A DNA stretch of 64,000 bases from Bacteroidales bacterium (GTDB lineage Bacteria; Bacteroidota; Bacteroidia; Bacteroidales; UBA3663), in assembly GCA_045639585.1 (NCBI GenBank), contig JAZUDJ010000034.1, positions 1,303 through 65,302 on the forward strand, in the 5' to 3' direction. Shown here one piece after another: positions 5,465 through 57,764 of the stretch. The position numbers and the translations under genes are program-made. A model generated the notes under the pieces. It was not told where the DNA came from and did no database searches. It saw only the letters and a program-made list of their open reading frames with translations. How positions within the stretch are numbered: the stretch's first letter is position 1; every line of letters starts with the position of its first letter.

Positions 5465-6877
5465 ATGACATTCATGGAACAGAAAATTACGGATTTCCTG
5501 AATATGATCAATGAGCCGATGGGTACAGTACTGGTGGTAGTGCTGGCACTCACCGGCCTCTGGTTTACGATCAGGACGAAAGGAATGCAGTTCAGGATGA
5601 TTGGGGAGATGACGAGACTTTTGTTTCAGTCGTCACCTAATCAGAAAGAGGGTAAGACGGTGAGCAGCTTCCAGGCATTTACGGTGTCGCTGGCTTCGCG
5701 TGTAGGCACTGGCAATCTGGCTGGTGTGGCTACGGCTATCGTAGTAGGTGGCCCAGGTGCGATCTTCTGGATGTGGGTCATGGCGCTTATCGGTAGTGTG
5801 AATACCTTCATCGAGTGTACGCTGGCACAGCTCTTCAAGGAGAAGGGTGAGGACTCGTATATCGGAGGTCCTGCCTATTATATCACCAAGGGTCTGAAGA
5901 AGCGCTGGTATGCCTGTATCTTTGCGGTGGCTATCATCGGTCAGTTCGGCTTGACCAATAATATGGTGCAGGTCAATACGATTTCATCGGCCTTTACTGT
6001 GGCGTTCGGCTTTAGTCCGATGGTGATGGCGGTGGTGCTGACGGTGGGTTCGATGGCGGTGATCTTCGGTGGTATCCAGCGTATTGCTAAGGTATGTTCG
6101 GTGATTGTGCCATTCATGGCGTTGGGTTATCTGCTCATCGCGCTGTGGATCATCGTGACCAATCTGGATCAGATTCCAGCGGTGCTGTCGATTATTGTCA
6201 AGAATGCTTTTGGCTTTGAACAAGCGCTCGGTGGTACGGTGGGTACTGCTATCATGATGGGCTTCAAGCGTGGTATCTTCAGTAATGAGGCTGGTGAGGG
6301 CAGTGCTCCTAATGCTGCTGCTACAGCTGAGACGTCGCACCCAGTGAAGCAGGGTCTTATACAGACGCTCGGTGTGTTTACTGATACGCTGGTGGTATGC
6401 TCTTGTACAGCCTTTATCATCATGTGCTCTGGTTTGTATGACTGTGGCGAGAATGGCATTGAGCTGACGCAGGTGGCGCTCTCGGCTCATATCGGAGAAA
6501 TCGGTAAGACGATCATTGCGGTGGCAATCCTCTTCTTCGCTTTCTCAAGCGTCTTGGGCAACTATTACTATGGAGAGTGTAATGTGCAGTTCCTCTTCGA
6601 GAAGACGCGTATGGAGAAGCATGGTGTACTGATCTATCGTCTGATACTGACCGTTGTCTTATTCCTGGGCGCGCTGATGACCATCGATATTGTGTGGGCA
6701 TTGGTCGATTTCTTCATGGTGATCATGACTGTATGTAACCTCATTGCAATCTGCCTGCTCGGACATTATGCTATACGTCTGCTGGATGACTATATCGAGC
6801 AGAAGAAGGCTGGAAAGGATCCTGTGTATAGGAAGGAGACTTGTCCGGAGATTCAGGATGAGACGGAGTGCTGGTGA
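5465..6877 (+). CDS. alanine/glycine:cation symporter (AGCS) family transporter
   Basis: Polytopic membrane protein with AGCS-type motifs (GTGNLAGVATAI, SNEAGEGSAPNAAA, FFAFSSVLGNYYYGE). ATG at 5465; the ATG at 5474 is also possible. Confidence 0.88.
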   Translation: MTFMEQKITDFLNMINEPMGTVLVVVLALTGLWFTIRTKGMQFRMIGEMTRLLFQSSPNQKEGKTVSSFQAFTVSLASRVGTGNLAGVATAIVVGGPGAIFWMWVMALIGSVNTFIECTLAQLFKEKGEDSYIGGPAYYITKGLKKRWYACIFAVAIIGQFGLTNNMVQVNTISSAFTVAFGFSPMVMAVVLTVGSMAVIFGGIQRIAKVCSVIVPFMALGYLLIALWIIVTNLDQIPAVLSIIVKNAFGFEQALGGTVGTAIMMGFKRGIFSNEAGEGSAPNAAATAETSHPVKQGLIQTLGVFTDTLVVCSCTAFIIMCSGLYDCGENGIELTQVALSAHIGEIGKTIIAVAILFFAFSSVLGNYYYGECNVQFLFEKTRMEKHGVLIYRLILTVVLFLGALMTIDIVWALVDFFMVIMTVCNLIAICLLGHYAIRLLDDYIEQKKAGKDPVYRKETCPEIQDETECW

Positions 6878-6879
6878 TG

Positions 6880-7037
6880 AACCCACCCCCGGCCCCTCCC
6901 GTCAAGGGAGGGGAGTAAGATGTGATTTGGGGTAAAGAATAAAGACCGCCCTCGTTACGAATGTGTAGCGAGGGCGGTTTTTTATATGCTGAACTAATCA
7001 CTCCCCTCCCTTGACGGGAGGGGCAGGGGGTGGGTTT
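6880..7037. repeat. GC-rich palindromic (REP/MITE-like) element filling the convergent gap
   Basis: 37-bp arms AACCCACCCCCGGCCCCTCCCGTCAAGGGAGGGGAGT (6880-6916) and ACTCCCCTCCCTTGACGGGAGGGGCAGGGGGTGGGTT (7000-7036) are reverse complements with 1 mismatch. Each arm contains its own hairpin CCCCTCCC-n5-GGGAGGGG. Confidence 0.85.
6945..6984. terminator. intrinsic terminator at the centre of the palindromic element
   Basis: Stem ACCGCCCTCG/CGAGGGCGGT with a 14-nt loop, followed by TTTTTT. Confidence 0.7.
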
Positions 7038-9075
7038 ACTTCAATACGTATACCGCGAATGACTTAGCACCGAGCTTAACGCTGAGAGTCTGGCCATCGA
7101 TAGTGAGAGCGCTCTCCTTTGGAGTGATCTTCTCAGGCTCGTCGAGAGTATTCTCTGCATCCATCTCAGGATAGGTGAGGAGAATCTGCTTTGCTGACTG
7201 GAAAGTCTGACCCTTCTTCATGCCCTGGAACTGGAGGTTGAGATCCTGAGCCTCGTCGCCTACGTTAGCTACCTTGACGATGTATGAGTCGGTCTCCTTG
7301 TCATATACTGCACTTGCGAAGAGACCATTCTGATCTGCATCGCCAGCGACTGACTTCTTGTTCATGGTCAGCGAGAGGACGTTGGTGCCCTTGTAGTGGC
7401 AGTAGAGCTGCTGAACGTAGTATGAAACTGACTTGAATGAGCGGAGGTTGTCGAACCAGATCATGTCAGGACGCCACTGCCAACCCTTGACGTGAGCGAA
7501 GAGAGGAGCGTAGGTAGCCATGTGTACGATGTCTGCATTGCGCTCAATACCAGTCATGTGTGCAGCCTCAAGGAGAGAGGTGTAGAAGTGATTCCACTTC
7601 TTGCCGTCGCCGTGGCATGCATACTCGCCTGCGAATACCTTTGGACCCTTGCGATCGTAGTTGTCATAACGATGACCGTGGCTGAGGAACCACTGCTCGT
7701 TGCGATAGTAGTGCTCGTCATAGAGATCGACCTTGAGCTCCTTCATCTTAGGCTGGGGGAGATCGAAGTCCCAACCCTCTGAGTTAGGGCCAGTGGTGCC
7801 GATGAGCTTGAGGTCAGGATAAGCTTTGCGGAGAGCCTCATTGAACTTCTTGAGACGATCGGTGAAAGCGTTGTTAGGACCTCCGTGAGCCTCATCATAG
7901 TCCCACTGCTCGTTGCCGACGCCGAGGTACTTGAGGTTGAATGGCTCTGGATGACCCATTTCTGCACGAACCTTGCCCCACTTGCTGTCTACAGGACCAT
8001 TGGCAAATTCTACGAGGTCGAGAGCGTCCTGGATGTATGAGTCGAGGTCGTCGATAGCAACGTGAGCGGTCTTCTCATTCCAGATTTCGTTTTGGAACTG
8101 GCAAGCCAAACCACAAGAGATAACTGGGAGCGCCTCGCAACCGAAGTCCTCACAGAGCTGGAAGTACTCGAAGAAGCCGAGGCCATAGGTCTGATGGTAC
8201 TCAGGATAGAGACGGTATGGGAAGGTGTTCTCCCAACGGTTCTCGTTGAGTGGACGGTTCTCTACAGGACCTACAGAGTTCTTCCACTGATAGCGCTGCT
8301 CGAGGTTGGTACCCTCGACGATACAACCGCCAGGGAATCGGAAGACACCAGGATGGAGGTCGCAGAGAGCCTGAGCGAGGTCTTTGCGCATGCCGTTCTC
8401 ACGACCCTTCCAAGTGTCGGTAGGGAAGAGGCTGACGTGCTCGATGTCGATGCTATTCATAGGAGCCCAGAAGTCTCGGCCTTCCTCAGGACGGAGGAAG
8501 AGACGGAGGTGCGAATCCTCAATAGTGATAGGTGACTTGATGGTGAGGGTGTACTTCTTCCACTCTTTGCCAGAGACAACGATCTCAGCGTTAGTGAATT
8601 CCTGATTCTCGCCCATGGTGTCATTGTCGACGAGCTGAACCTGCAGTACGCCACTGCCGCCTTCTGGAACGCGTGCCCAGAGGGAGAAACGATAGGTAGC
8701 GTCTTTCTTGACCGATACGCCGAAGAAGCCTTCGTTCTCGATGCCAGTGCGCTTGTGTGGGTGACCTGGGTCAGAGAGGCGTACGTAGTGTGGGTTCTTG
8801 TCGAATGGGCCATCGTCGAGCACCTGGAACTTGCCGAAGGCTGTCCAGCCCATGAGGTTCTGTGGGAATTCGAACGAGCGGTTCTTGATCATCTCGGCAT
8901 AGAGGCCGCCATCAGCTGCGAAGTTGATGTCCTCGAAGAAGATGCCATACATGGTAGACTGGATAGGTGCGCCCAGTTTCTTGGTCTGGATCACCATGTC
9001 GTTGGTGGCAGCGTGTGTGTTCATTGCTGCTGCACCTAAGGCGAAGGTGGCCAGGAGTGTTTTGTAGGTGTTCAT
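7036..9075 (-). CDS. GH51 alpha-L-arabinofuranosidase (secreted)
   Basis: Signal peptide; YGIFFEDINFAADGGLYAEMIKNRSFEF; RFPGGCIVEG; LGVGNEQWD (GNE acid/base motif). Confidence 0.88.
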   Translation of the reverse strand: MNTYKTLLATFALGAAAMNTHAATNDMVIQTKKLGAPIQSTMYGIFFEDINFAADGGLYAEMIKNRSFEFPQNLMGWTAFGKFQVLDDGPFDKNPHYVRLSDPGHPHKRTGIENEGFFGVSVKKDATYRFSLWARVPEGGSGVLQVQLVDNDTMGENQEFTNAEIVVSGKEWKKYTLTIKSPITIEDSHLRLFLRPEEGRDFWAPMNSIDIEHVSLFPTDTWKGRENGMRKDLAQALCDLHPGVFRFPGGCIVEGTNLEQRYQWKNSVGPVENRPLNENRWENTFPYRLYPEYHQTYGLGFFEYFQLCEDFGCEALPVISCGLACQFQNEIWNEKTAHVAIDDLDSYIQDALDLVEFANGPVDSKWGKVRAEMGHPEPFNLKYLGVGNEQWDYDEAHGGPNNAFTDRLKKFNEALRKAYPDLKLIGTTGPNSEGWDFDLPQPKMKELKVDLYDEHYYRNEQWFLSHGHRYDNYDRKGPKVFAGEYACHGDGKKWNHFYTSLLEAAHMTGIERNADIVHMATYAPLFAHVKGWQWRPDMIWFDNLRSFKSVSYYVQQLYCHYKGTNVLSLTMNKKSVAGDADQNGLFASAVYDKETDSYIVKVANVGDEAQDLNLQFQGMKKGQTFQSAKQILLTYPEMDAENTLDEPEKITPKESALTIDGQTLSVKLGAKSFAVYVLK

Positions 9076-9142
9076 AAATATATAATTTAAAATGTATAAT
9101 TAAAAATGTAAAATGAAAAATTAAATGTGTCTGTGTGTGGTG

Positions 9143-23388: not shown

Positions 23389-25335
23389 ATGAAAATTCAA
23401 AATAAATTGACTTCAATCCTGGGCGTTGCATCACTCGCTGTGATGGCTTTGACCAGTTGTGAAGGAGGTGATCTCTACTCGGTAGATTCTCCTGACTGGA
23501 TTGCTGCACGCGTTGACTCAATTGCTGAGGCAAAGAAGAATGATGTTCCTGAGCAACTTGACCTCATGGAGGATGTCTATACCTTTGGTAAGACCGACTT
23601 CTCTTCAGGTTGGTGGGCAGAGTTCTCTAAGTACTATGTAGTACCTGATGGCAAGAAATGGCAGGCTCAGTTCAACCTCAACATTAATCCTTCTGACGAT
23701 ACCTATTATAAGAATTTTGCACTCGTAGTAGCTAATACCGTCCGTGGTGGTGATGGCTACTCGGAGTATGGTGCTATCCGTTACGACCTCACAGGCGATG
23801 CTAATGCATTCAACTCAAACTGGGGTACCGTTTTCGGTCAGATTGAGGGTAATGGTTTCAAATACACTGAGAGCAACCTTATGCTGGCTCCTGTCGATAA
23901 CAAGGATGCTGCTGTCCAGAAGCTCGGTGGCAAGGTGACCTTGACCATTGATCGTACCGATGCTAATCGTTTCTATATCGAGATGAACAATGGTACTGCT
24001 GTCAAGACCTTCAATATGCCTGCGAATATCGAACCAGGTGGAGATATCTATTGTTTCCTTGTTCCAGAAGGTTCATACATCAACTTCATCGGCACAGACA
24101 TCGAGCCAATCGGTGGCTGTACTTCAAAGGAAGACAAGCAGCCTCTTGGCATCACCTTGAAGGGCGTTCCTGGAAAGGTAATGCAGGGCACCGTACTTGA
24201 TTCACTTATTACAAGTGTTTCTGCTATCATTGACTTCGAGACTGGAGTCACCAAGGAGGTTTCTTATAAGGATCTTACTTTCCAGGCTATCCCTGATCTC
24301 AATGGTCTTGGCGAGAAGACTCTCATCGCAGTTTATAACCAGACCTATAAGGGTGAGGGTGCTGCTAAGCCAGTTATCGGTAACGCTACCTTCAACGTTG
24401 TTGACAAGATGTACAACACGCTTGGTGAGTCTAGCTGTACTACTGGATGGTGGGGTGCCCACTCAACAAACATTAAGGTCGCTCCTGGTGAGACCGTAGT
24501 CTCAACCTTCACCAACTACACCAGCGGTGGAAGTAACTGGAATAACTGGGTAATGGTTCTCTGTAAGGAGGATAACTCTGAGTATGCAGTAGTTCGTGCC
24601 GACAACTATGGTTGGGGTGCTGGTTATGAAGGTATTGCTACTGCTACTTGCGATAATGGTGGCGACTGGGGTGCTTGGCTCGCAGCAATGAACGGTGCAA
24701 AGGTTACCACCTTCGTTACCAACTATGGCGATGGCACTGCTGATGTCAATGCAGTCATCATTGGCAATGATGGCAATACATATACTCAGGCATACACTGG
24801 CATTGCAGTTAACGATCCAGATGATTTATGGTTCCGCTTTACTGTCGATGGTTCTTGCCTCGTATTCGATGATGTTCTTGGTGCAGAGGATTGCACTTCA
24901 GGTTGGTGGAGCGCTCACTCACAGAATATCAATGTACCTGCAGGTATGAGTGTAACTCAAACTTTCATCAATCGTTCTTCTGGTAATAGTAACTGGAACA
25001 ACTGGGTATTGGTTCTCTGTAAGGAGGACAACTCTGAGTATGCAGTAGTTCGTGCAGATAACTACGGTTGGGGTGCTGGTTATGAAGGTATTGCTACTGC
25101 TACTTGCGATAATGGTGGCGACTGGGGTGCTTGGCTCGCTGCAATGAATGGTGCTCGTGTTACCGTAACCGTTACTAACAATGGTGATGGCACAGCAGAC
25201 ATTTTGGCTACAATTATTGGCAATGGTGGTGAGGAATTCTGGCAGAAGTATGAGGGTATCTCAATTTCTGATCCTGATGATGTCTTCTTCCGCTTCACTG
25301 TCGATGGCAGTTGCCTCATATTCGATGCTAACTAA
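23389..25335 (+). CDS. surface glycan-binding-protein-like lipoprotein with three related Trp-rich modules
   Basis: Lipobox LTSC. It occupies the SGBP position after susD. Three copies of a ~150-aa module share GWW...NWNNW...VRADNYGWG. Confidence 0.65.
   Translation: MKIQNKLTSILGVASLAVMALTSCEGGDLYSVDSPDWIAARVDSIAEAKKNDVPEQLDLMEDVYTFGKTDFSSGWWAEFSKYYVVPDGKKWQAQFNLNINPSDDTYYKNFALVVANTVRGGDGYSEYGAIRYDLTGDANAFNSNWGTVFGQIEGNGFKYTESNLMLAPVDNKDAAVQKLGGKVTLTIDRTDANRFYIEMNNGTAVKTFNMPANIEPGGDIYCFLVPEGSYINFIGTDIEPIGGCTSKEDKQPLGITLKGVPGKVMQGTVLDSLITSVSAIIDFETGVTKEVSYKDLTFQAIPDLNGLGEKTLIAVYNQTYKGEGAAKPVIGNATFNVVDKMYNTLGESSCTTGWWGAHSTNIKVAPGETVVSTFTNYTSGGSNWNNWVMVLCKEDNSEYAVVRADNYGWGAGYEGIATATCDNGGDWGAWLAAMNGAKVTTFVTNYGDGTADVNAVIIGNDGNTYTQAYTGIAVNDPDDLWFRFTVDGSCLVFDDVLGAEDCTSGWWSAHSQNINVPAGMSVTQTFINRSSGNSNWNNWVLVLCKEDNSEYAVVRADNYGWGAGYEGIATATCDNGGDWGAWLAAMNGARVTVTVTNNGDGTADILATIIGNGGEEFWQKYEGISISDPDDVFFRFTVDGSCLIFDAN
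24436..25332 (+). repeat. intragenic tandem duplication (2 x 456 bp) inside the SGBP-like gene
   Basis: Copy 1 is 24436-24891 and copy 2 is 24892-25332. The core 24532-24702 versus 24988-25158 is near-identical, including a long perfect block GGTTGGGGTGCTGGTTATGAAGGTATTGCTACTGCTACTTGCGATAATGGTGGCGACTGGGGTGCTTGGCTCGC. Confidence 0.9.
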
Positions 25336-25454: not shown

Positions 25455-27335
25455 ATGCTGAAACATTTTTACGCCTTAGCATTACTTTCTTCTGTTACAT
25501 TGGCCTCTTCAGCTCAGGTTTCTATTGGCCGTGTAGTATGTCATGACCCTTCCATCTTTATGGACGGTGTTACCACTGGTACCCCAGAGTCTCCTGTTTA
25601 TTATATCTATGGTTCACACCTCGGACATGGTAAGACTACAGCAGAGAAGAATTATATCAATTGGAGTACTTGGGCCAGCGATGAGGGGGCAATGACTGCA
25701 GACAAATCTCTCTTTGTCGATCAGAATGGCAATAATGTACTTTACTCTAGTGCTTATGGAGATGCTCATGACTGGCAGGCCAAAGGTAATAGTGTAAGAG
25801 GGATGCAGTGGGCTCCAGACGTCATCTACAACAAGCAGATGAAGAAGTGGTGCATGTATATGAGCCTCAATGGCGATAGCTGGTGCTCTGTCATAGTCCT
25901 CTTCACCTCTGATCGTCCTGATGGGGGTTGGAAGTATGCTGGTCCTGTCGTATACTCTGGTTTCCAAGGAACTTATGACCACAATGGTTATACTAAAACA
26001 GATGACTACAAACATACAGATCTTGAGAAAGTTATCGGAGAACAGGCCTCTCTACCAGCTCGCTATAAGGTATCGGACAAATGGGGTGAGTACTGGCCAA
26101 ACTGTATTGACCCATGTGTCTTCTACGATGCAGAGGATCAGCTCTGGATGTCATATGGCTCATGGAGTGGAGGTATCTTTATGTTCCAGCTTGATGAATC
26201 TACAGGTCTTCGCGATTATTCTATCCAGTATAAAGAAGAATTGGATAATGCTGGCGACTATCATACATGTACGTCCGATCCCTATTTTGGTAAGAAGATC
26301 GCAGGCGGATATTATGTCTCAGGTGAAGCTAGCTACATCCAGCGCATTGGCAAATACTACTATCTCTTTATGAGCTATGGTGGCTTGAGTGCCGTTGCAG
26401 GTGGTTCTTGGCCATACGGAGCTGTCGGTTATCAGATGCGTATCTTCCGCTCGGAGAATCCAGATGGTCCATATATGGATTGCAACACATCAAAGGGGCA
26501 GAAAGCTTTGTTCTCGCAGTATCAGCTTAATTTCGGTAAAGATGCCGTTACTGATCGTGGCACACGCCTCATGTCAGCCTATAAGTGGGATAGCATGACC
26601 AAGGCCGAGATTGCGCAGGGACACAACAGCGCTATTGTCGATCATAAGGGTCGCGCTCTCGTGGTTTATCACACTCGTCAGGTCGCCTCTGGTGAAGGTC
26701 ACTCAGTACGCGTACACCAGCTCTTCCAGAATCAGGATGGCTGGCTCGTCGCTGCGCCATACGAATTTTATGGTGAGGAGATCACACAGGAGGATATTGA
26801 TACAAAACAGATATATAACGCTAATCAGGTCGCTGGTGAGTATGACCTCATCGTACATAAGATTCGTCAGGATGCTGTAACTCAGGACTATGCTAAGCCA
26901 GAGAAGATCACCCTTGGTACAGATGGCAAGGTCACTGGTGCGTATGCAGGTACTTGGAAACTGGTTGACAACACAGGCTACGTGAGTGTAGCTTTGAAGG
27001 GTGTCAATGGAGGTAGCAAAACCACAACCGTAGCCTTCAAAGGTGTCGTAGTTGAGCAGACACTCAAGGCTAACGTTGATCCATCCAAGGTTACTAAAGC
27101 TCTCTGCTTCACAGCACTCAGTTCGTCAAGTGGTGTTGCTGGAATTAATGCAACTCGCGGCCTCTGCATCTGGGGTACACAAACCAAGGCTGCAGAACCT
27201 TCTGGCATCGAGGCGGTGCACTCAGACGATGCTGTAGAAACAAATGAAGATGTCTTCGATCTCTTCGGCCGCAAGCAGGAGGATTTACAGAAGGGCCTCA
27301 ATATTAAGAAGGGTCGCATATTGCTGGTTAAGTAA
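25455..27335 (+). CDS. GH43 arabinanase-like hydrolase with a C-terminal T9SS-type sorting tail
   Basis: Signal peptide; VCHDPSIFMD and WAPDVIY GH43 motifs. The C-terminus DVFDLFGRKQEDLQKGLNIKKGRILLVK resembles the short Prevotella por-secretion tail. Confidence 0.85.
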   Translation: MLKHFYALALLSSVTLASSAQVSIGRVVCHDPSIFMDGVTTGTPESPVYYIYGSHLGHGKTTAEKNYINWSTWASDEGAMTADKSLFVDQNGNNVLYSSAYGDAHDWQAKGNSVRGMQWAPDVIYNKQMKKWCMYMSLNGDSWCSVIVLFTSDRPDGGWKYAGPVVYSGFQGTYDHNGYTKTDDYKHTDLEKVIGEQASLPARYKVSDKWGEYWPNCIDPCVFYDAEDQLWMSYGSWSGGIFMFQLDESTGLRDYSIQYKEELDNAGDYHTCTSDPYFGKKIAGGYYVSGEASYIQRIGKYYYLFMSYGGLSAVAGGSWPYGAVGYQMRIFRSENPDGPYMDCNTSKGQKALFSQYQLNFGKDAVTDRGTRLMSAYKWDSMTKAEIAQGHNSAIVDHKGRALVVYHTRQVASGEGHSVRVHQLFQNQDGWLVAAPYEFYGEEITQEDIDTKQIYNANQVAGEYDLIVHKIRQDAVTQDYAKPEKITLGTDGKVTGAYAGTWKLVDNTGYVSVALKGVNGGSKTTTVAFKGVVVEQTLKANVDPSKVTKALCFTALSSSSGVAGINATRGLCIWGTQTKAAEPSGIEAVHSDDAVETNEDVFDLFGRKQEDLQKGLNIKKGRILLVK

Positions 27336-27346
27336 TTTTTGAAATG

Positions 27347-27598
27347 GGAAAGGACGTCTTGCTTGCAGGACGTCCTTTCTTATATCAAGGAATGGATGTC
27401 TTGCTTGCAGGATGTCCTTTCTTATATCAAGGAACGGATGTCTTGCTTGCAGGATGTCCTATCTTATATCAAGGAATGGATGTCTTGCTTGCAAGATGTC
27501 CATTCTTACGTGTAGGAAGGTCTCGCAGGAATTCGTGTGATCCCTTCTTGCAATCAGGAAGGTCTCGCAGAGAATCGAGTGATCCCTTCTTGCACAAA
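27347..27598. repeat. tandem array A: six 42-bp stem-loop units
   Basis: Units run 27347-27388, 27389-27430, 27431-27472, 27473-27514, 27515-27556 and 27557-27598. Units 1-4 read AGGAAnGGAYGTC-TTGCTTGCAR-GAYGTCCWWTCTT. Units 5-6 keep the outer stem AGGAAGG/CCTTCTT. Confidence 0.9.
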
Positions 27599-27665
27599 TG
27601 AGAGGAAAGTGTATTAATTAATGTTATTTTTCTACTCGAAACTTGCAAGTATATTTTAAAAGGTG

Positions 27666-27673
27666 TATATTTG
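27666..27673 (+). promoter_or_regulatory. -7 box TATATTTG for the thi operon
   Basis: GGTGTATATTTGCAG, just upstream of the TPP aptamer. Confidence 0.55.
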
Positions 27674-27684
27674 CAGCGCAAAAT

Positions 27685-27770
27685 CGGTTTCCGATTCGGG
27701 GTGCTTGCTTTGTGCAGGCTGAGATTATACCCATTGACCTGATGCAGGTAATGCTGCCGTAGGAAGTGCT
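27685..27770 (+). promoter_or_regulatory. TPP (THI-box) riboswitch aptamer
   Basis: CGGGGTGC...GGCTGAGATTATACCCATTGACCTGATGCAGGTAATGCTGCCGTAGGAAG matches the conserved THI-box core (GGGGUGC, CUGAGA, ACCC, ACCUGAU, AAU.C..CGUAGGRA). It is followed by hairpin 27792-27826 in front of thiS. Confidence 0.88.
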
Positions 27771-27840
27771 TATTATTTCAAGACAATTTGTATACCCCGC
27801 AGTGAAGCAGTTTCGCTGAGGGGTATTAATGTTAATAATT

Positions 27841-34649: not shown

Positions 34650-37600
34650 ATGCCATCCGCTTCTCTTATCTCTAAGAATAGCCAGATATTCAAACTTGCT
34701 GACTATATCGCCAGTAGCCATCTTTCATTCGATGTATTAGACACCATACAGCGCGTCTTTCTGTTGAGCAACAGGGTCAGTTCTGTATTGATTAGCGTTG
34801 AAGATGATAGTGTAATCTATATTTCCTCACATTTGATTTCTGATGTCTCGAAACTGACTCCAGAAACCAATATTGAGGTCGTTTCTTATAATGAATGGCG
34901 TAAAGAGGTGTCAGAGTCGTTTGCTTACGATTATGATCGAAGCAGGTTCACAAGAAGTACTTTGCTTGAGACGTTGCGATATAAAGTTCGTGACCATCAG
35001 CGTTATTCTTTTGTGGCTCATCGTCTAGAGGACGGTCATGAGAGTGTCGTGAAGCAAACCTTCATCAGCTTGGGCAAGGATGCTAAGTTTATTCTTTCCA
35101 CCCAGCAGGAGATTACCAACAACCTTGAGCATGACGTGCTGACGGGAGGTCTTAATCGTGCTGGCCTATTGCGAGAATTGCAGAATAAGATTGAGATGAA
35201 TGAGGTGGGTACCGAGTTGTCTATCCTCTATTTCAATATCCAGAACTTCCGAATGATCAACGAGTTCTATGGAGATGAAATAGGCGATAAGGTCCTCCAG
35301 TTCTTATACACTCGTCTTGTCTATTCTGCTTTGCATCCAGTGTCTTATGCTCGCATGGAATCCGACAAGTTTGTACTTCTGGTTCATAAGGAGAACTGTG
35401 ACGTGGAGGTAATCGACCAGCTCTGCCGTCAGGAATTCGAATCGGAACAGCAGAAGATTCCTTTCCAGTGCTTGTGTGGTATCTATCACATCAAGGACAT
35501 GCTCATTTCGCCGATCAACGCCATCAATCGAGCTAAGCTGGCGATCTCATTTATTCGAGATCTTTTCATCAAGCCATGGATGGTTTTCGAGGAATACATG
35601 CAGAGTTCGTATTTCTCAGATAATGAGATCTTGCTTTCTTTTGAAGAAGCTCTTAATAATAACGAGTTTGTCCCTTATTTCCAACCTATTGTCAATGCAC
35701 AGACAGGTCGTATTGAGATGGCAGAGGCGTTGGTGCGCTGGGTGTCGCCTAAGCATGGTATCATTTCTCCGACACTTTTCATTCCGATTCTTGAGCGCCA
35801 TGGAGGACTCTCGCGTATTGATATGCTCATGGAGGGTAGGATCATTGAGTTGCAGCGCCGCCGCCTCAGCAAAGGTCAGCCTGTTATTCCTATCGATATA
35901 AATCTATCGTGGGTCGACTTCTCTGATCGTAAGTTTGTAGAGCAGCTCTTCCAGCATATAGAGGATCACTCGTTGCCAAAAGATCTTGTCTGCTACGAGA
36001 TCACGGAGACAGCACTCTCAGACATTGCGGAAAACCGTCTCGATGTTCTCGCTTTCTTTAAGAAGCATGGCATCAACATGCTTATTGATGATTTCGGCCA
36101 AGGCTATTCGTTCGGTTCGATGAAGGATGTTGAGTTCAAAATCATCAAGCTCGACAAGTCGCTCATTGATCGCATTGGCCAGAGTCGCAAGAACGATCTT
36201 CTTCTGGAATCGCTCATCACGATGTTCCACAAGATGAATGCCAAGATCATTGCAGAGGGTGTTGAGACAGATATTCAGCTCAAGTTCTTGCGTGAAATGG
36301 GTTGTGATTATATCCAGGGCTTCTATTTCTACAAGCCGATGGATGAGAACGCTTTCCTTGCTTTGCTTGAGCAGCAGCAGATTGCTGTAGAATATAACAA
36401 TGTCCAGGTTCCACTTGCATCTGCACCGAACTATAGTCAATGGACTTTACCATCTGTCGGAGCTAAAAAGGAGTCTTTTGCTGCTAATGACAAGCAGAAG
36501 CAGGATGCTTCGGAATTGAAATGTCTGCGTTTCCTCCTTGATGAGCAGGATGTGCATATCTTTTCATGGAATGTCAAGACACATGTCACTACCTTGCCTG
36601 AGAAGTTCTGCAAGAAGTACGGTTTGCCTTCAGAATTGTCTAATATGCCAGAGAATGGCAATCTGACTGTTCCTGAAGACATGGAACGTTTTATCAATTT
36701 CTATAAGCGGATAGAGCGTGGCGAACAGATGGGTACCGACTACTTCCGTCTCCTCAATCCCGATAAGAAAGGCTATCGTTGGTACCGTAAGACCTTCTAT
36801 ACAATCTTCGACAGCAATGGTTTCCCTGTCAAAGCCATCCTCGCTATGCAGGACTGTGGCGACAAATACAATCTTCGCGTACACCGTACCCGTGAATTGA
36901 TGCTGACGCAGGAGCAGGACATTCTGACCTTCATCTACACTTTGCCAGATGACTCTTTGCGTTTCAACTACCTTAATGCTAATGGTAGCGTTGTGTCTCG
37001 TGTCTTCCCGGATTATCTTAAGACAGTTACTAGCGAGAATCGGCTTGCCAGTAAGATCAAGAAGACGATAGAGGATATCGATGGACCTCGTACTGGCTGG
37101 ATAGATTTTTATAATAACTACAGTAAGTGTGAGCAGCGTGCGCACTTCTCCAAGATTGATGGTGAATACGGTCATCTTTATGCCATTGTCGGTCAGGCAG
37201 AAAACATCAATCGTACCAAGGAACGATTGACTGAAACCATCAAAAAGCAGAGCGAGCTTTTGGGTATGACCGAGAGCCTCCGTAGCATTTATAACCTCGT
37301 AGCTTATTATGACATAGAGGAAGATAAGCAGAGTACCTTGATTCTTGATAAGGCTTATGAGAGATATCTTTCTCCACACATGGATATCCGTACGTCATTC
37401 CGAATTTATGTTGGTCGAGTGCTCAAGGAAAACTATCGCGAAGACTTTGTGAAATTTGAGGATCTTTCTACGCTCGACGAGCGAATGAAGGGACAGAAGT
37501 TTATTTCGCATGAGTATGAGGATAATGTATGTGGTTGGATGCGTGCTTTCCTGATTCCATCAGAGTACACACCAGAGGGAAAGATTCGTTCGGTCCTCTT

Positions 37601-38141
37601 CGCTGCACAATCTATTGGTCAGGAGAAGAGTATGATGGAGCGTCTCATCTATCTCTCAGAGATTGATGGCCTTACACAAATTCGTAACCGTTATAGCGGT
37701 ATGCGTGAGATCTCTAAGGCGTTGCAGCAAGGAGGTCCTGGAGTCTTCGGTATCCTCGATAGTGACAAGTTTAAGTTTGTCAATGATAATTATGGACACA
37801 TTGTAGGTGATCATGTCCTTGAGTGTATTGCCCAGGGTCTTACTGTCATGAATCCGGATGGCATCAATATGCGTCTCGGAGGAGATGAGTTTGCCTTCTA
37901 TATATCAGGTAGTCTTACAGACGAACAGATACATCAGAAAATGGAAGAGTTCTTCGCATACCTCAATGAATTCAGATATAAAGAAGGAGACAACAATCAT
38001 ATATCTGTGAGCCTCGGTATCGTTGCCATTGAAGAGAATCAGGTTATTGACATCGATGAGGCTTATCGTCGAGGTGACGCGTTGCTTTATCAAAGTAAGA
38101 AGACTTATGGCAACGCTGTGACCATCGAGCGAATAAAATAA
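34650..38141 (+). CDS. multidomain c-di-GMP signalling protein: degenerate GGDEF - EAL - PAS-like region - GGDEF
   Basis: First GGDEF-like domain has MESDKF in place of GGDEF. EAL domain has EALVRW, INLS, YEITE, DDFGQGYS, KLDKS, AEGVET and IQGFYF. C-terminal domain has an intact RLGGDEFAF. No TM segments. Confidence 0.85.
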   Translation: MPSASLISKNSQIFKLADYIASSHLSFDVLDTIQRVFLLSNRVSSVLISVEDDSVIYISSHLISDVSKLTPETNIEVVSYNEWRKEVSESFAYDYDRSRFTRSTLLETLRYKVRDHQRYSFVAHRLEDGHESVVKQTFISLGKDAKFILSTQQEITNNLEHDVLTGGLNRAGLLRELQNKIEMNEVGTELSILYFNIQNFRMINEFYGDEIGDKVLQFLYTRLVYSALHPVSYARMESDKFVLLVHKENCDVEVIDQLCRQEFESEQQKIPFQCLCGIYHIKDMLISPINAINRAKLAISFIRDLFIKPWMVFEEYMQSSYFSDNEILLSFEEALNNNEFVPYFQPIVNAQTGRIEMAEALVRWVSPKHGIISPTLFIPILERHGGLSRIDMLMEGRIIELQRRRLSKGQPVIPIDINLSWVDFSDRKFVEQLFQHIEDHSLPKDLVCYEITETALSDIAENRLDVLAFFKKHGINMLIDDFGQGYSFGSMKDVEFKIIKLDKSLIDRIGQSRKNDLLLESLITMFHKMNAKIIAEGVETDIQLKFLREMGCDYIQGFYFYKPMDENAFLALLEQQQIAVEYNNVQVPLASAPNYSQWTLPSVGAKKESFAANDKQKQDASELKCLRFLLDEQDVHIFSWNVKTHVTTLPEKFCKKYGLPSELSNMPENGNLTVPEDMERFINFYKRIERGEQMGTDYFRLLNPDKKGYRWYRKTFYTIFDSNGFPVKAILAMQDCGDKYNLRVHRTRELMLTQEQDILTFIYTLPDDSLRFNYLNANGSVVSRVFPDYLKTVTSENRLASKIKKTIEDIDGPRTGWIDFYNNYSKCEQRAHFSKIDGEYGHLYAIVGQAENINRTKERLTETIKKQSELLGMTESLRSIYNLVAYYDIEEDKQSTLILDKAYERYLSPHMDIRTSFRIYVGRVLKENYREDFVKFEDLSTLDERMKGQKFISHEYEDNVCGWMRAFLIPSEYTPEGKIRSVLFAAQSIGQEKSMMERLIYLSEIDGLTQIRNRYSGMREISKALQQGGPGVFGILDSDKFKFVNDNYGHIVGDHVLECIAQGLTVMNPDGINMRLGGDEFAFYISGSLTDEQIHQKMEEFFAYLNEFRYKEGDNNHISVSLGIVAIEENQVIDIDEAYRRGDALLYQSKKTYGNAVTIERIK

Positions 38142-53580: not shown

Positions 53581-53581
<1 letters not shown>

Positions 53582-54369
53582 TGAAAAGACTCTATACACT
53601 GATAATGCTGCTCCTTTCAGGGGCAGCATTATTTGCTCAATCTCACGAAGTCCTTATCAGCACTAACATGGGCAATATGCGCGTCGTGCTTTATGATGAT
53701 TGTCCAAAGACGGTTGCCAACTTCCTCGGCAAGGTACGTGCTGGCTACTATGATGACTCACTCTTCGGTCGTGTCATTCCTACCTTCATGATCCAGGGTG
53801 GTGCACCGGATAGTAAGACGGCTGGACCTGGCCAGAGCATTGGTTGGGGAGATGTCAGCGAAGAGATCCCGATGGAGACCACCCGTCATATTCCGAAGAA
53901 AGGCGCTCTCTGTGCTCCTCATCGTGACGGTGTAAGGAAATCTGATATGTCGCAGTTCTTCATCGTCGAAGGTTATCCGATGTCTGACGCAACGCTCAAC
54001 AACTGGGAGAAGACTCACAACGCTGAGGCTCGTAAGAAGGCTAAGAAAGTGGTCATGACCAAAGCGGTGGTCGATAGCCTTGATATGCTGAAGACTGTTG
54101 ACGCCAAGATGTACAACCAGCTGGCGCGTCGTGTCAATCATGACATAGACAGTATTGCACGCTCTTATCCAGGTACTCGCTTCTTCACTCCAGAAGAGCG
54201 CGAAGCCTATACGACAGTAGGCGGTGCCTACCACATCTATGGCGAATATACCTGCTATGGAGAGGTTGTCGAAGGTCTCGAAGTCATCAGCAAGATTGCT
54301 GCTCTTGAGAGCAATGTTGCAAACCGTCCTCGCACGGATGTGCGAATGAAGATTAAGGTAATAAAATGA
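53581..54369 (+). CDS. cyclophilin-type peptidyl-prolyl isomerase (secreted, with a ~90-aa insertion)
   Basis: Signal peptide; FGRVIPTFMIQGG, MSQFFIV and CYGEVVEGLEVISKI. The start overlaps the guaB stop (TAATG). Confidence 0.85.
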
Positions 54370-54397: not shown

Positions 54398-54608
54398 ATA
54401 ATAATAACGGACGTCCTGCAAGCAAGGCGTCCGTTATTTTATGTAGGAAAGGACATTTTGCAAGCAAGGCGTCCATTCTTATATGTGGGAATGGCTCTCC
54501 TGCAAACAAGACGTCCATTCTTTTATGCGGGAACGTCCATTCTGCAAGCAAGGCGTCCATTCTTTCGATTAAGAACGTCCGTCTTGCATGCAGGATGTCC
54601 ATTCTTTA
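54398..54608. repeat. tandem array B: five diverged 42-bp stem-loop units of the same family as array A
   Basis: The loop motif GCAAGCAAGG and its variants start at 54418, 54460, 54502, 54544 and 54586, an exact 42-bp phase. Stems are AAYGGACG/CGTCC-type and the outer stem is GGAA..TTC(T)T. Confidence 0.85.
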
Positions 54609-54609
54609 A

Positions 54610-56631
54610 TTACTTGAAGATAGCACACCAGCCACCGGCAGGAGCCAGGTTGATGTTAATCTTTTCTGAAGCTGAGACCTTGCGGGTCACGTGCTTGTAA
54701 TCCGTAGCCTCACGATCAGCGTTGATGCCATCGGTGAAGCTGTCCATGCTCACGTCAGAAGTCAGGAACTTAGAGAGGTCGATGGTCATGGTGCGAGGCG
54801 ACCAGTTGTTCATGGCTGCCACGTACCAGGTGTCACCCTTGCGACGAGCGATGGCAACGTATTCGCCCATTTCTCCGCTGAGAGGGATGGTCTCGTCGAA
54901 GGTGGTAGGTACAGCGGCAATGAAGTCGGTGCACTCCTGGTTCTGCTCGTAGTGTGTCGGCGAGTCGGCCATCATCTGGAGAGGAGCCTCGTAGATGACA
55001 TACATAGCCATCTGGTGCACGCGGGTACCCATGCTCATAGGGTGGTTGTTGTTGCCGAAGAAGTGGTCGCGGGTAGCGTTGTGCATAGCGCCTGGGGTGT
55101 AGTCGAGTGGGCCAGGGAGCATGCGGAGGTAAGGGATCGAGACGTCGTAGCGTGGCATGTCGTGCACAGGGCCATTGGCATTGCGCTGCTCCCACTTGCA
55201 GTTCTCCAAACCCTTGACGCCCTCGAAGTTGACGACGTTAGGATAGGCGCGCTGCACGCCCATTGGCTTGAGGCCGTGGTAATCTACGAGCAGGTGGTGC
55301 TTGGCAGCATACTCAGCCATCTCGTAAGCAGAGGCGATAACGATCTGATCATCACGGTCGAAGAAATCAATCTTGAAGCCTTTGACGCCAGCTTCCTTGT
55401 AGTGATTCATGTTGCGCTCCATGTCTTTGATGAGGTTGCGCCATGAGCTCCAGAGGATAATACCAACGTTCTTCTCCTTGCCATATGCCACGAGCTCAGG
55501 AATAGAGAGTTCGTCGTTGGCGTACTTGAGGAGGTCTTCTTCATCGCTCCAACCTTCATCGACGATGATGTATTCTACGCCATTCTTCGATGCAAAGTCG
55601 ATGTACTTCTTGTAGGTGAGGGTGTTGATGCCAGCGCGGAAGTCGACGTTATAGAGGTTCCAGTTGTTCCACCAGTCCCAAGCCACCTTGCCCGGCTTGA
55701 TCCATGAGGTGTCAGCGAGGCGGCACTCAGGAGAGAGGCAGAATGGGGTGTCTGTGTCGAGCAACTGAGTATCCTGCGCAGTGACAAGCACCAGACGCCA
55801 AGGCAACTGCTGGAGAGGCTTGAGGTCGGCGATGTAGTCGGCACGCTTTGTTGGCACGAGGTTCAGACGGTCGAAGCCACCTACTACGGTTTCGAGTGGC
55901 AGAGGTGCGAAGTCGGTGAGGAGCGTGTTGGCTGGGGTAGCGTCATTGCGATAAAGGAACATGCCAGGGTAGTTCTCGACGCTGGTTTCCATCACGATGG
56001 CCTTCATCTGGTTAGGCAGACAGACAGCCAGTGGAGTGATGGCTATAGAGTCAGGGAACATCTTCGAGATTGGCTGTTCGTCGTAATATGACTCAAAAGA
56101 ATAGCAGTACTTCTCGCCGCCGCGGTTGTCGTTGACGTATGGCACGAAGGCCTTGTAATCGTCAGCGAAGCAGAAAGCGTTGTTCTCGCTCACTACGCGC
56201 ACTGGCTTGTTTACTTTGCTCACGAGGCGGTATGCGCAACCGTCGTTATAAGCTCTGACCACGAGGTTGAATTCGCCGCTACATGTGAGGGTGAGCTCGT
56301 TGCAAGTCTCGTTGACGGTACTCCTTTTGTAGTTAATAGGGTTGAAGGTACGGCTGATGGCCTTCTGCTTAGCGCCTGAGATGCGGGTCTTCTCGCCCCA
56401 CTCTGTCTGCATTGTTTTCTTACCGACGCTTTTTGTGGTCTTGATGCTGATAGCCGATGGGAGAAGCACTGTGGCGCCGTCGCGCTCGATGCTCCAGGTG
56501 ATTTTCTCTGTGTCACAGACTGTGGCTTTCAGGTGGCCATCAGGAGAGGTCACGACATAGTCCTTGGCCTGCATGCTCATGCCAGTAAGGAGCAGAAGAG
56601 CGGTTAGTGATAGTGCTTTGTAGTGTTTCAT
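54610..56631 (-). CDS. GH97 glycoside hydrolase (alpha-glucosidase/alpha-galactosidase family)
   Basis: Signal peptide MKHYKALSLTALLLLTGMSMQA; IIVDEGWS; GVKGFKIDFFDRDDQ; ~670 aa. The start is set at 56631 rather than the ORF start at 56673. Confidence 0.88.
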   Translation of the reverse strand: MKHYKALSLTALLLLTGMSMQAKDYVVTSPDGHLKATVCDTEKITWSIERDGATVLLPSAISIKTTKSVGKKTMQTEWGEKTRISGAKQKAISRTFNPINYKRSTVNETCNELTLTCSGEFNLVVRAYNDGCAYRLVSKVNKPVRVVSENNAFCFADDYKAFVPYVNDNRGGEKYCYSFESYYDEQPISKMFPDSIAITPLAVCLPNQMKAIVMETSVENYPGMFLYRNDATPANTLLTDFAPLPLETVVGGFDRLNLVPTKRADYIADLKPLQQLPWRLVLVTAQDTQLLDTDTPFCLSPECRLADTSWIKPGKVAWDWWNNWNLYNVDFRAGINTLTYKKYIDFASKNGVEYIIVDEGWSDEEDLLKYANDELSIPELVAYGKEKNVGIILWSSWRNLIKDMERNMNHYKEAGVKGFKIDFFDRDDQIVIASAYEMAEYAAKHHLLVDYHGLKPMGVQRAYPNVVNFEGVKGLENCKWEQRNANGPVHDMPRYDVSIPYLRMLPGPLDYTPGAMHNATRDHFFGNNNHPMSMGTRVHQMAMYVIYEAPLQMMADSPTHYEQNQECTDFIAAVPTTFDETIPLSGEMGEYVAIARRKGDTWYVAAMNNWSPRTMTIDLSKFLTSDVSMDSFTDGINADREATDYKHVTRKVSASEKININLAPAGGWCAIFK

Positions 56632-56642
56632 AAAATAATTAG

Positions 56643-57764
56643 TTAGTAGGGTATAGTTGTAATTTGTAAGCAAATTCTGTGCATATTCTCCATTGCATTT
56701 TCCTTCCTCATCAGTTCTTCAATGGGTCTATTGTCTCCCTCATTGATTGATCGAACCTCTGAGAAACCAGCAAGGAGCAGTTCTTGTGAGTCTTCTATTG
56801 CACCAGAAAGAAGCGTGCAGGGGATACCTAGCCTTTTAGCTCTTGCAAGTACTCCCATCGGTACTTTCTTCGGAGCTTCTGCACAACTTCTTTGGTCAAT
56901 ATTTTCTCCTATTATATTATATAATGTCTGTCCATCCGTCTTGCCTTCGCCTGTCAGCACCAGGTCGGCATCTGCAATTTGCTGGTCAAAGTGGATGGCA
57001 TCAAGAAGCAGGTCTACGCCAGAGGTGAGCTTGGCGTTGAGATAGGCCATCAAGCCATAACCTAAGCCGCCTGCTGCACCTGCGCCTGGATGATTGACCA
57101 GTACGGGAGAAGCAATCCCTGCTGACTCTGTTTCTCGTGCGAAGTCCCTCAGTCTTTTGTTCAGGAGGATGACCTGCTCAGGGGTAGCACCTTTCTGTGG
57201 AGCGAAGACGAATGCTGCACCCTCAGGTCCATAGAGCGGATTGCTGACATCTGAGGCTACGATGACTTCTACAGGCAAGGGTACGTAAGGACGCAGACAC
57301 TCAATCATACCCTGTCCACCATCGCACGTGGCGCTTCCTCCTATGCCCATGATGATCTTCGTACATCCGCGGCGAATGGCGTCAAGAATCATTTCTCCAA
57401 TACCGTAGGTGGTCGTAATCATCGGGTTGCGCTTCTCCATTGGCACTAAAGTCAAGCCGCTGGCAGCCGCCATCTCCATATACGCGGTCTTCTGCTCTTG
57501 GTTCGTGCTATTACTTGATGAGAAAGAGACCGCATACTTCGCTTCAATCTCCTGCATCAACGGGTCATGAACCTTGACTGTAATCATCTCCACGTCAAGA
57601 GCCTCTGCAATACAATCCACCATTCCTTCTCCGCCATCGCTCATCGGCAAGCATACTACCTCAGCGTCCGGATAGCACTCCTGCAATCCAGAGGCTGCTG
57701 CATGGCATGCTTCCTGTGCACTCATGCAACCTTTGAACGAGTCGAAGGCGGTGATGATCTTCAT
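56643..57764 (-). CDS. glycerate kinase
   Basis: MKIITAFDSFKGCMSAQEAC N-terminus, MSDGGEG, LVLTGEGKTDGQTL. Confidence 0.88.
   Translation of the reverse strand: MKIITAFDSFKGCMSAQEACHAAASGLQECYPDAEVVCLPMSDGGEGMVDCIAEALDVEMITVKVHDPLMQEIEAKYAVSFSSSNSTNQEQKTAYMEMAAASGLTLVPMEKRNPMITTTYGIGEMILDAIRRGCTKIIMGIGGSATCDGGQGMIECLRPYVPLPVEVIVASDVSNPLYGPEGAAFVFAPQKGATPEQVILLNKRLRDFARETESAGIASPVLVNHPGAGAAGGLGYGLMAYLNAKLTSGVDLLLDAIHFDQQIADADLVLTGEGKTDGQTLYNIIGENIDQRSCAEAPKKVPMGVLARAKRLGIPCTLLSGAIEDSQELLLAGFSEVRSINEGDNRPIEELMRKENAMENMHRICLQITTIPY

Follow-up and report, generated by a model that had tools for sequence, protein, structure and literature searches.

The stretch of DNA that we have analysed (hereafter the window) comprises 64,000 nucleotides from a Bacteroidales bacterium (assembly GCA_045639585.1, contig JAZUDJ010000034.1, positions 1,303 to 65,302 of the forward strand) and contains two arrays, A and B, of palindromic units that follow one another every 42 bp. 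Array A lies between the final gene of a polysaccharide utilization locus (PUL), coding for a GH43 protein, and the thi operon, with the following features at the locus.

25455-27335, plus strand: GH43 gene (Pfam PF04616, PF16369), the final gene of a SusC/SusD PUL
27347-27514, plus strand: units 1-4 of array A (type 1), AGGAAnGGAYGTCTTG-CTTG-CARGAYGTCCwwTCTT plus an ATATCA linker
27515-27598, plus strand: units 5-6 of array A (type 2, AGGAAGGTCTCGCAG..GTGATCCCTTCTTGCA), on the same lattice as units 1-4
27666-27673, plus strand: TAtaTTTG box, a putative promoter element matching the Bacteroides -7 consensus
27687-27780, plus strand: thiamine pyrophosphate (TPP) riboswitch (Rfam RF00059; 57.7 bits, gathering score 54.3), which leads the thi operon

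A first-pass annotation made from the sequence alone had described six 42-bp units starting 11 nt after the GH43 stop codon (27333-27335), and this is what we find, the start agreeing with the open reading frame (ORF) and its Pfam domains and the units with the repeat analyses. Array A as a whole spans 27347-27598 and consists of four type-1 and two type-2 units with a period of exactly 42 bp. Tandem Repeats Finder (TRF) gives period 42 at 27347-27508 (score 275, 3.9 copies with 92% matches and 0% indels). It places another 42-bp family at 27514-27594, the part of the array where a different interior had been noticed in units 5-6, and a repeat search of the window returns in-register copies starting at 27347, 27389, 27431, 27473 and 27515. 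The 24-nt core GGAYGTCTTGCTTGCARGAYGTCC has 8 matches in the window, all inside arrays A and B, with 0.00 expected from 100 shuffles. In a dyad scan the stems of units 1-4 contain 16-17 pairs, including 3-4 G.T, with a CTTG apex (G-CUUG-C as RNA), so that the stem exceeds the ~13 bp that had been proposed together with a loop of 10 nt; the pairs are centred at exact 42-bp steps (27363.5, 27405.5, 27447.5 and 27489.5). Units 5-6, centred at 27531.5 and 27573.5, are weaker palindromes in which 13 and 11 of 16 ring positions are paired. Right arms can alternatively pair with the next left arm, producing dyad centres every 21 bp, and the minimum-free-energy fold of the array nests neighbouring units.

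With related loci, designated by L and a number in what follows, the set grows to 13 arrays. These come from at least 8 related assemblies of uncultured Bacteroidales/Prevotella-like bacteria, and no fewer than 8 unrelated hairpin sequences are represented. For 59 units in 12 arrays, each possible centre up to 4 bp to either side of a 42-bp lattice was scored for dyad symmetry, and the best centre falls exactly on the 42.0-bp lattice in 55 of the 59. Dyads of 11-17 pairs over a span of 28-36 bp are likewise present in 55 of 59 units; over the window as a whole, a score of 12 of 16 pairs is reached at only 0.5% of centres. Only L136 deviates, with a drift of 0.5 bp per step, while the five dyads of L134 are in phase even though its units are too diverged for TRF. 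Differences in hairpin span (28-36 bp) are compensated by linker length, the linkers between contiguous units amounting to 6-14 nt. Between L012 and L013 the 210-bp interior aligns unit by unit without indels, the flanks of the arrays differ in length by 3-23 nt, and unit 3 is of a different type in the two loci, its GTAC centre having stayed in phase. No property of the array family is better conserved than the 42.0-bp spacing, and the earlier remark that 42 bp corresponds to four helical turns has become the more interesting lead. All of the 13 arrays examined are extragenic, with ORFs or called genes on either side. The module typically has feet rich in A/T and a short linker, and a TGCA(T/G)C-like linker motif is frequent. 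An IHF-like WATCAANNNNTTR match can be seen by eye in some linkers and stems, inconsistently across types.

Close relatives of the window GH43 protein occur only in metagenome assemblies, Segatella copri proteins being 54% identical, and exact-protein look-ups with the window GH43 and IMPDH returned no match. We compared GH43 ortholog loci at 98, 86, 86, 83, 82, 77, 68 and 66% amino-acid identity. All those at 77% or above (98, 86, 86, 83, 82, 77) have an array straight after the stop codon, whereas the relatives at 68% and 66% have one terminator-like hairpin in place of the array. The five complete orthologous arrays contain 4-6 units, compared with six in the window. At the 98% relative (L010) the array begins as in array A with one apex change, and the contig ends inside it at 2298, as is typical of repeats; contigs carrying ThiG (L143-L146) start just downstream of the expected array position, and the arrays seem to break short-read assemblies. 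The hairpin sequence differs in each taxon group: TTAACACCCGGTACCAGGTGTTAA in L011, TCAACAYC..GTAC..GRTGTTGA in L012 and L013, TTGTCCGA...TCGGACAA in L134 and L135, and GTCGATGTCAAC...GTTGACAT in L136. Because the gene downstream also varies in nearly every lineage, being a different one in each of five groups (thi operon, M13 peptidase, AhpC, AraC-type, MG2/A2M), the arrays sit at synteny breakpoints. At L139 the upstream gene codes for a TPR protein rather than GH43, and three lattice units precede the orthologous thi promoter; since units 5-6 of the window align in position and partly in sequence with the two units on the thi side, array A was probably put together in register from two arrays, one on the GH43 side and one on the thi side. 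L140 has a five-unit array of a further hairpin type in a divergent intergenic (promoter) region.

The type-1 core was scanned in 185,579 species genomes, a collection outside which the window's own genome lies. Only two uncultured Bacteroidales metagenome-assembled genomes (MAGs) matched, four other matches being due to chance, and the type-1 unit turns up at five more places, each on a contig of its own (four contigs belonging to one MAG and one to the other); the strict core gives 5 units on 4 contigs of one MAG. Three of the five loci (L003, L004 and L007) have the type-1 unit in mosaics with other hairpin types, and carry the same type-1 to type-3 mosaic. At L005 a five-unit type-1 array fills the gap that separates an acyl-carrier-protein gene from an unknown ORF within a minus-strand KAS operon, its units in the opposite orientation. 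An nhmmer profile built from 19 type-1 units finds no further copy within the window, and scans of viral contigs with type 1 and the GTAC type gave 0 matches. A search of metagenomes for two apexes 42 bp apart (CTTGCWTGCA-N32-CTTGCWTGCA) matched at least 120 loci; among those listed there were no hairpin arms, and the matches were unrelated low-complexity repeats.

The diverged second array that had been reported at 54398-54608 does exist, as array B, with five units in the opposite orientation as judged from minus-strand core matches and from its sequence.

53581-54369, plus strand: cyclophilin-type peptidyl-prolyl isomerase (PPIase) gene (Pfam PF00160), convergent with the GH97 gene
54400-54609, minus strand: array B, five type-1-derived units of period 42 (TRF), centres at 54420.5 + 42n
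54610-56673, minus strand: GH97 gene (Pfam PF10566, PF14508, PF14509), with array B directly after its stop codon

Array B fills most of the GH97/PPIase intergenic gap and fits the lattice with 11-15 of 16 pairs. Its last unit (54400-54441), 30 nt from the PPIase stop, has the form AATAA-hairpin-TTATT, symmetric between the two convergent genes, and looks like a bidirectional terminator. The orthologous array, L002, another of the five type-1 loci, also has five units and is identical at 181 of 210 positions (86%) with no indel; the last unit is identical throughout (42/42) and unit-specific quirks are common to both. Fourfold-site identity between the window and L002 is 55% for GH97 (n=260) and 72% for PPIase (n=71), so that array B evolves more slowly than synonymous sites. 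The constraint at this locus looks to be on sequence rather than on pairing, and changes are mostly one-sided, with 10 pairs broken or made and 2 kept. The L012 and L013 arrays, by comparison, are 67% identical against 50-64% synonymous identity, weakly above the synonymous level.

Pairing across the family was quantified for 53 distinct units at ring positions 3-16. In all, 79% of these are paired, a figure that drops to 37-44% once the partner column has been shifted by 1-3, with 3-6 pair types per ring, and 585 pairs are observed compared with 397 +/- 17 when right arms are shuffled among units. Pairing is thus kept by compensatory change, as can be followed between L012 and L013, where 9 changes are two-sided and leave the pairs intact; the outer stem of unit 1, CCTTCGG/CCGAAGG in L012 and CTCACGG/TCGTGAG in L013, amounts to three compensated pairs. 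The covariation fits selection on a folded single strand and templated repair of quasi-palindromes equally well, and RNA is not identified thereby. Comparison of L012:5869-6100 with L013:5964-6195 also reveals that the central 10 nt are often reverse complements of one another, for example CGTGTACGTG and CACGTACACG, and the type-1 apex of L003 and L007 shows the same kind of flip. Such reverse-complement apexes point to small arm-mediated apex inversions.

Unit 1 of array A has GGACGTC/GACGTCC and units 2-4 have GGATGTC/GATGTCC, as the first-pass annotation stated, and the resulting wobbles had been taken as the mark of a structured RNA (or single-stranded DNA) specific to the GH43-sense strand and under selection there, or else of strand-biased deamination. 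For array A itself the asymmetry is real. The plus strand folds to -143.5 kcal/mol and the minus strand to -85.2, there are 18 G.U positions versus 1 A.C, and the sense apex, G-CUUG-C, is a stable tetraloop type; moreover 4 of the 6 GH43-locus arrays fold somewhat better in sense. The excess is not general in the family, however. Array B (-86.0 and -85.0 kcal/mol) and L002 (-95.8 and -94.9) show no strand asymmetry, nor do L003 and L013, while L005, L007 and L011 have the more stable fold on the strand that is antisense to their flanking genes, and in sense orientation the 12 arrays together have 88 G.U and 72 A.C positions. The ~11 wobbles of array A are the same two C>T changes in three near-identical units (2-4), and the arms of GGACGTCC form direct repeats as well, at a distance of 21 bp, so that 1-2 independent C>T events, multiplied by duplication or by conversion from one arm to the other, would suffice. 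Further evidence against this reading comes from GGACGCC variants, which place C.A mismatches on the unit-sense strand, from the antisense position of the same unit type inside the L005 operon, from the apex flips between orthologous units, and from the lack of any Rfam match. In our judgement the reading is quite improbable. As to orientation relative to transcription, the linker motif gives sense at 4 of 5 independent loci, and the flips make apex orientation an unreliable guide.

No gene, CRISPR array or single ordinary terminator accounts for the arrays, as had been stated earlier. At the Rfam gathering threshold the TPP riboswitch alone passes in the window and the arrays match no family, a permissive search of the arrays producing only sub-threshold miRNA-like hairpin matches. 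A CRISPR array was rejected on the grounds that the units are contiguous without unique spacers and that the window contains no cas domains, and a type III toxin-antitoxin (ToxI-like) element on the grounds that there is no downstream toxin gene, the neighbours being the TPP riboswitch and thi operon and the convergent PPIase gene. Tandem hairpin units that are conserved in structure but little in sequence are also known from gut Bacteroidota in the non-coding RNA arrays of UG27 reverse transcriptases. These have units of ~135-167 nt with an internal loop and pseudoknot and adjoin the reverse transcriptase and two accessory genes in prophages (bioRxiv 10.64898/2026.09.22.753630); with units of 42 nt, no reverse transcriptase in the window and no prophage context such an array is ruled out. 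Lineage-restricted intergenic repeats of Bacteroidales include BrickBuilt of Porphyromonas gingivalis, a MITE (miniature inverted-repeat transposable element)/minisatellite whose spacer-less tandem repeat of 23-nt non-palindromic units lies between leader and tail segments with inverted-repeat ends (PMC4596501), and a dispersed 188-bp repeat of Prevotella intermedia (PMC4755523). Palindromic modules of 42 bp are absent from both, and both are ruled out.

The closest relatives by analogy are the repetitive extragenic palindromes (REP) and the bacterial interspersed mosaic elements (BIME) that they form. REP-like repeats are well known mainly in Proteobacteria, where their function is still debated, and REP/BIME usually exceed 100 copies per genome. 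As here, they are imperfect palindromes of ~30-36 bp, extragenic and often placed after stop codons or between convergent genes, regularly spaced in mosaic clusters of more than one unit type, with species-specific sequences whose arms stay complementary during drift, and a dual terminator/stabiliser role is a probable further likeness. Mosaic tandem REP arrays (GI/GIII) with fixed spacing are found in P. fluorescens SBW25 (PMC3116915), and REP325 of E. coli is reported to be transcribed as a ladder, acting as partial terminator and mRNA stabiliser (bioRxiv 10.64898/2026.03.23.713779). The foot of a REP hairpin carries an unpaired GTAG or CGTC tag (PMC3733652). The arrays described here differ in their Bacteroidota host, in being head-to-tail on an exact 42-bp lattice where REP/BIME alternate and have several linker classes, in their apparently modest copy number, and in the retention of orthologous arrays across species with conserved unit number. 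Since the units do not alternate in orientation and have no GTAG/CGTC tag, the family would be best regarded as a variant of the REP/BIME kind and not as a member in the strict sense. Tandem or bidirectional terminators provide a second comparison, with an A-rich 5' foot, a T-rich 3' foot, a position directly downstream of a stop codon, one terminator-like hairpin in the corresponding position of array-less relatives, and some units that pass a terminator scan. They differ in that the arrays have 4-6 copies in strict phase, many without a T-run, and are also found in an operon and a divergent promoter region. The sopC centromere of the F plasmid is made up of 43-bp units in tandem, SopB binding to a short inverted repeat in each of them, and thus similarly presents one dyad-symmetric site in each head-to-tail repeat of about four helical turns; here, in contrast, many chromosomal loci are involved, the dyad sequence varies between units and Pfam reveals no nearby partition genes in the window.

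With moderate confidence we interpret arrays A and B as lineage-specific, dispersed, intergenic mosaic arrays of REP/BIME-like palindromes that probably serve as transcript 3'-end barriers or insulators. The module would be an imperfect palindrome of 28-36 bp plus linker, ~42 bp in all, with several unrelated hairpin types sharing one lattice. Arrays would grow and be remodelled in register through unit duplication and gene conversion between arrays, intra-palindrome repair and apex flipping would keep the arms complementary while the sequence turns over, and recombination between arrays would leave them at synteny breakpoints; array A may have arisen when four GH43-side units were joined to two thi-side units. 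Once transcribed, a row of hairpins after a stop codon, in either orientation, could act like E. coli REP325, blocking 3'-5' exonucleases and partly terminating transcription, with the consequence that the upstream PUL/GH mRNA would be stabilised and the downstream riboswitch-controlled thi operon, or a convergent gene, insulated. We infer this RNA-level role, including the mechanism of barrier and termination, in part from a terminator scan that units 2 and 3 of array A pass and from unit 1 of L011, where the hairpin is followed by seven T; many other units are without a T-run.

Several observations weigh against such an interpretation. A model based on RNA hairpins leaves the exact 42-nt spacing across hairpin types unexplained. 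The apexes are often self-complementary (GTAC, GCATGC) and one L012 unit is a perfect 30-bp palindrome, both more than RNA function requires, and the changes between array B and L002 break or make pairs far more often than they keep them. Arrays are present inside the L005 operon and the L140 divergent promoter region, where termination would be harmful. In addition, the 64 kb contain only two arrays (11 units) with no other copy; the units are head-to-tail, unlike classical alternating BIMEs, and only the half-site arms alternate, every 21 bp; the feet are GGAA/TTCC-like rather than tagged with GTAG/CGTC, CGTC being confined to the interior of the type-1 stem. Pfam scans of 41 window ORFs revealed neither a RAYT or other transposase nor a reverse transcriptase or partition gene, and there is no RAYT among the called genes of the related loci that were fetched. 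The exact 42.0-bp phase, the self-complementary apexes and the sequence conservation of array B are better explained by a role at the level of DNA.

Such a role could take the form of a phased array in which the 42.0-bp spacing (four B-DNA turns), with half-sites every 21 bp, is itself selected. The dyads would then lie on one face of the helix and, by way of a structure-recognising or dimeric protein or of cruciforms, would separate transcription units by a barrier, either topological or made of cooperatively bound nucleoprotein, much as in the phased centromere repeats of plasmids or the binding of gyrase at BIME-2 (reported in PMC2817692). What speaks for this is the lattice, exact across at least 8 unrelated hairpin types in at least 8 assemblies and preserved where a unit has been replaced in place, where divergence has gone beyond TRF (the five dyads of L134) and where flanks vary by 3-23 nt around an indel-free 210-bp interior (L012/L013), together with the self-complementary apexes and the spacer-less perfect palindrome, the lack of a consistent strand bias, the conservation of sequence rather than pairing in array B, and the ability of any intergenic context, a divergent promoter region included, to host an array. 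On the other hand, sequences vary within one array with pairing kept by compensation, which makes a single sequence-specific protein unlikely, Pfam identifies no candidate gene for a binding protein nearby among the window ORFs, L136 drifts by 0.5 bp per step, and the period could derive from one 42-bp ancestor with in-register conversion in the absence of any selection on phase. We regard selected phasing as the main rival explanation, though a rather unlikely one. It is with similar reserve that we put forward the lattice as the conserved quantity, that is, as a DNA device of interchangeable palindromes four helical turns apart that insulates transcription units or supercoiling domains and doubles as a substrate for in-register recombination. 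If this were true, the DNA-level lattice would be a kind of bacterial chromosome element so far undescribed, one that reshuffles the neighbours of PUL operons.

The arrays could also be a selfish or neutral satellite, made up of non-autonomous units that are propagated by an HUH/Y1 (RAYT-like) or other enzyme, or by slippage and conversion, and that persist without host function because intergenic DNA tolerates them. REP/REPIN-RAYT systems offer a precedent (PMC3116915, PMC2817692), and lineage-specific hairpin repertoires with complete turnover between taxa, the multi-unit blocks common to L003, L004 and L007, the location at synteny breakpoints and a contig end of the kind seen in L010 are all to be expected of such elements. 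Less easily reconciled with a satellite are the same position and similar unit number (4-6 at GH43, 5 and 5 for array B and its ortholog) in spite of saturated fourfold sites (40-55% identity), and the conservation of array B well above the synonymous level with unit quirks common to both orthologs; neither target-site duplications nor clear ends were seen, the 41 window ORFs scanned with Pfam include no transposase, and there are no copies in viral contigs. This possibility, too, strikes us as doubtful. Finally, an ATG-initiated ORF of 85 aa (27344-27601) spans exactly array A and, as 42 nt equal 14 codons, would code for a small repetitive protein with 14-residue repeats. A repeat unit that is open in one frame leaves the whole array open there, the ORF is out of frame with GH43, the matching frame of array B carries stop codons, and stops occur in all six frames of the arrays of L011, L012, L013, L134 and L136. 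Coding by array A can practically be dismissed; the ORF is fortuitous, although automatic annotation may still call a hypothetical protein.

Other features of the locus and of the related contigs are of interest in their own right. The PUL that ends with the GH43 gene also holds a hybrid two-component system (HTCS) regulator, a GH88/DUF2264 protein, SusC and SusD. Its third gene (23389-25335) codes for 648 aa, as against 641 aa in relatives, without any match in Pfam, and the counterpart at L012:1916-3841 contains an internal 453-bp tandem duplication (1.9 copies, 82% matches); the product may bind glycans at the cell surface in the manner of SusE/F, by means of repeated domains. Downstream of array A the thi genes were identified by Pfam; a 143-aa PDDEXK_3 (nuclease-fold) gene lies between thiG and thiC at L139:4835-5266 and is not in the thi operon of the window. 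Directly after this operon, at 34650-38141, is a gene for a 1163-aa protein with EAL and GGDEF domains. To our knowledge cyclic-di-GMP turnover proteins are uncommon in Prevotella-like genomes.

Repeats of other kinds were noticed as well. An A/T-rich 7/14/21-bp tandem repeat (AAATGTA, ~7 copies) at 9076-9125 of the window sits in a 140-bp gap between minus-strand arabinofuranosidase and GH43 genes, and a 15/30-bp tandem repeat at 61715-61778 (TCTCTGCGGGTTTAG, 2.9 copies) falls within the minus-strand ORF 61446-62675, where it probably codes for a short repeated peptide. In L013 the genes for AhpC and formate-tetrahydrofolate ligase flank a stretch (6814-6966) of 10-bp repeats (TAAGGGAAAC-like, ~7 copies) followed by the inverse motif (TCCCTTAGAA, ~3.6 copies), a different repeat class in the same genome. 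The ~600 bp that follow the mosaic array of L007 (7160-7750) have no long ORF, contain inverted segments at ~7460-7640 (CCTAGGAAAC...CCTAGGCAC) and match no Rfam family at the gathering score.

The array family is apparently undescribed, and we found no description of REP or RAYT in Bacteroidota in the open literature. Strict phasing across unrelated hairpins, retention at orthologous positions and the conservation of array B together make it a clean case for separating the RNA-hairpin, DNA-phasing and selfish readings. The breaks that arrays seem to cause in short-read assemblies matter for the quality of MAGs. Located at the 3' ends of PUL operons and at synteny breakpoints, the arrays may influence both PUL expression and genome rearrangement in abundant gut bacteria.

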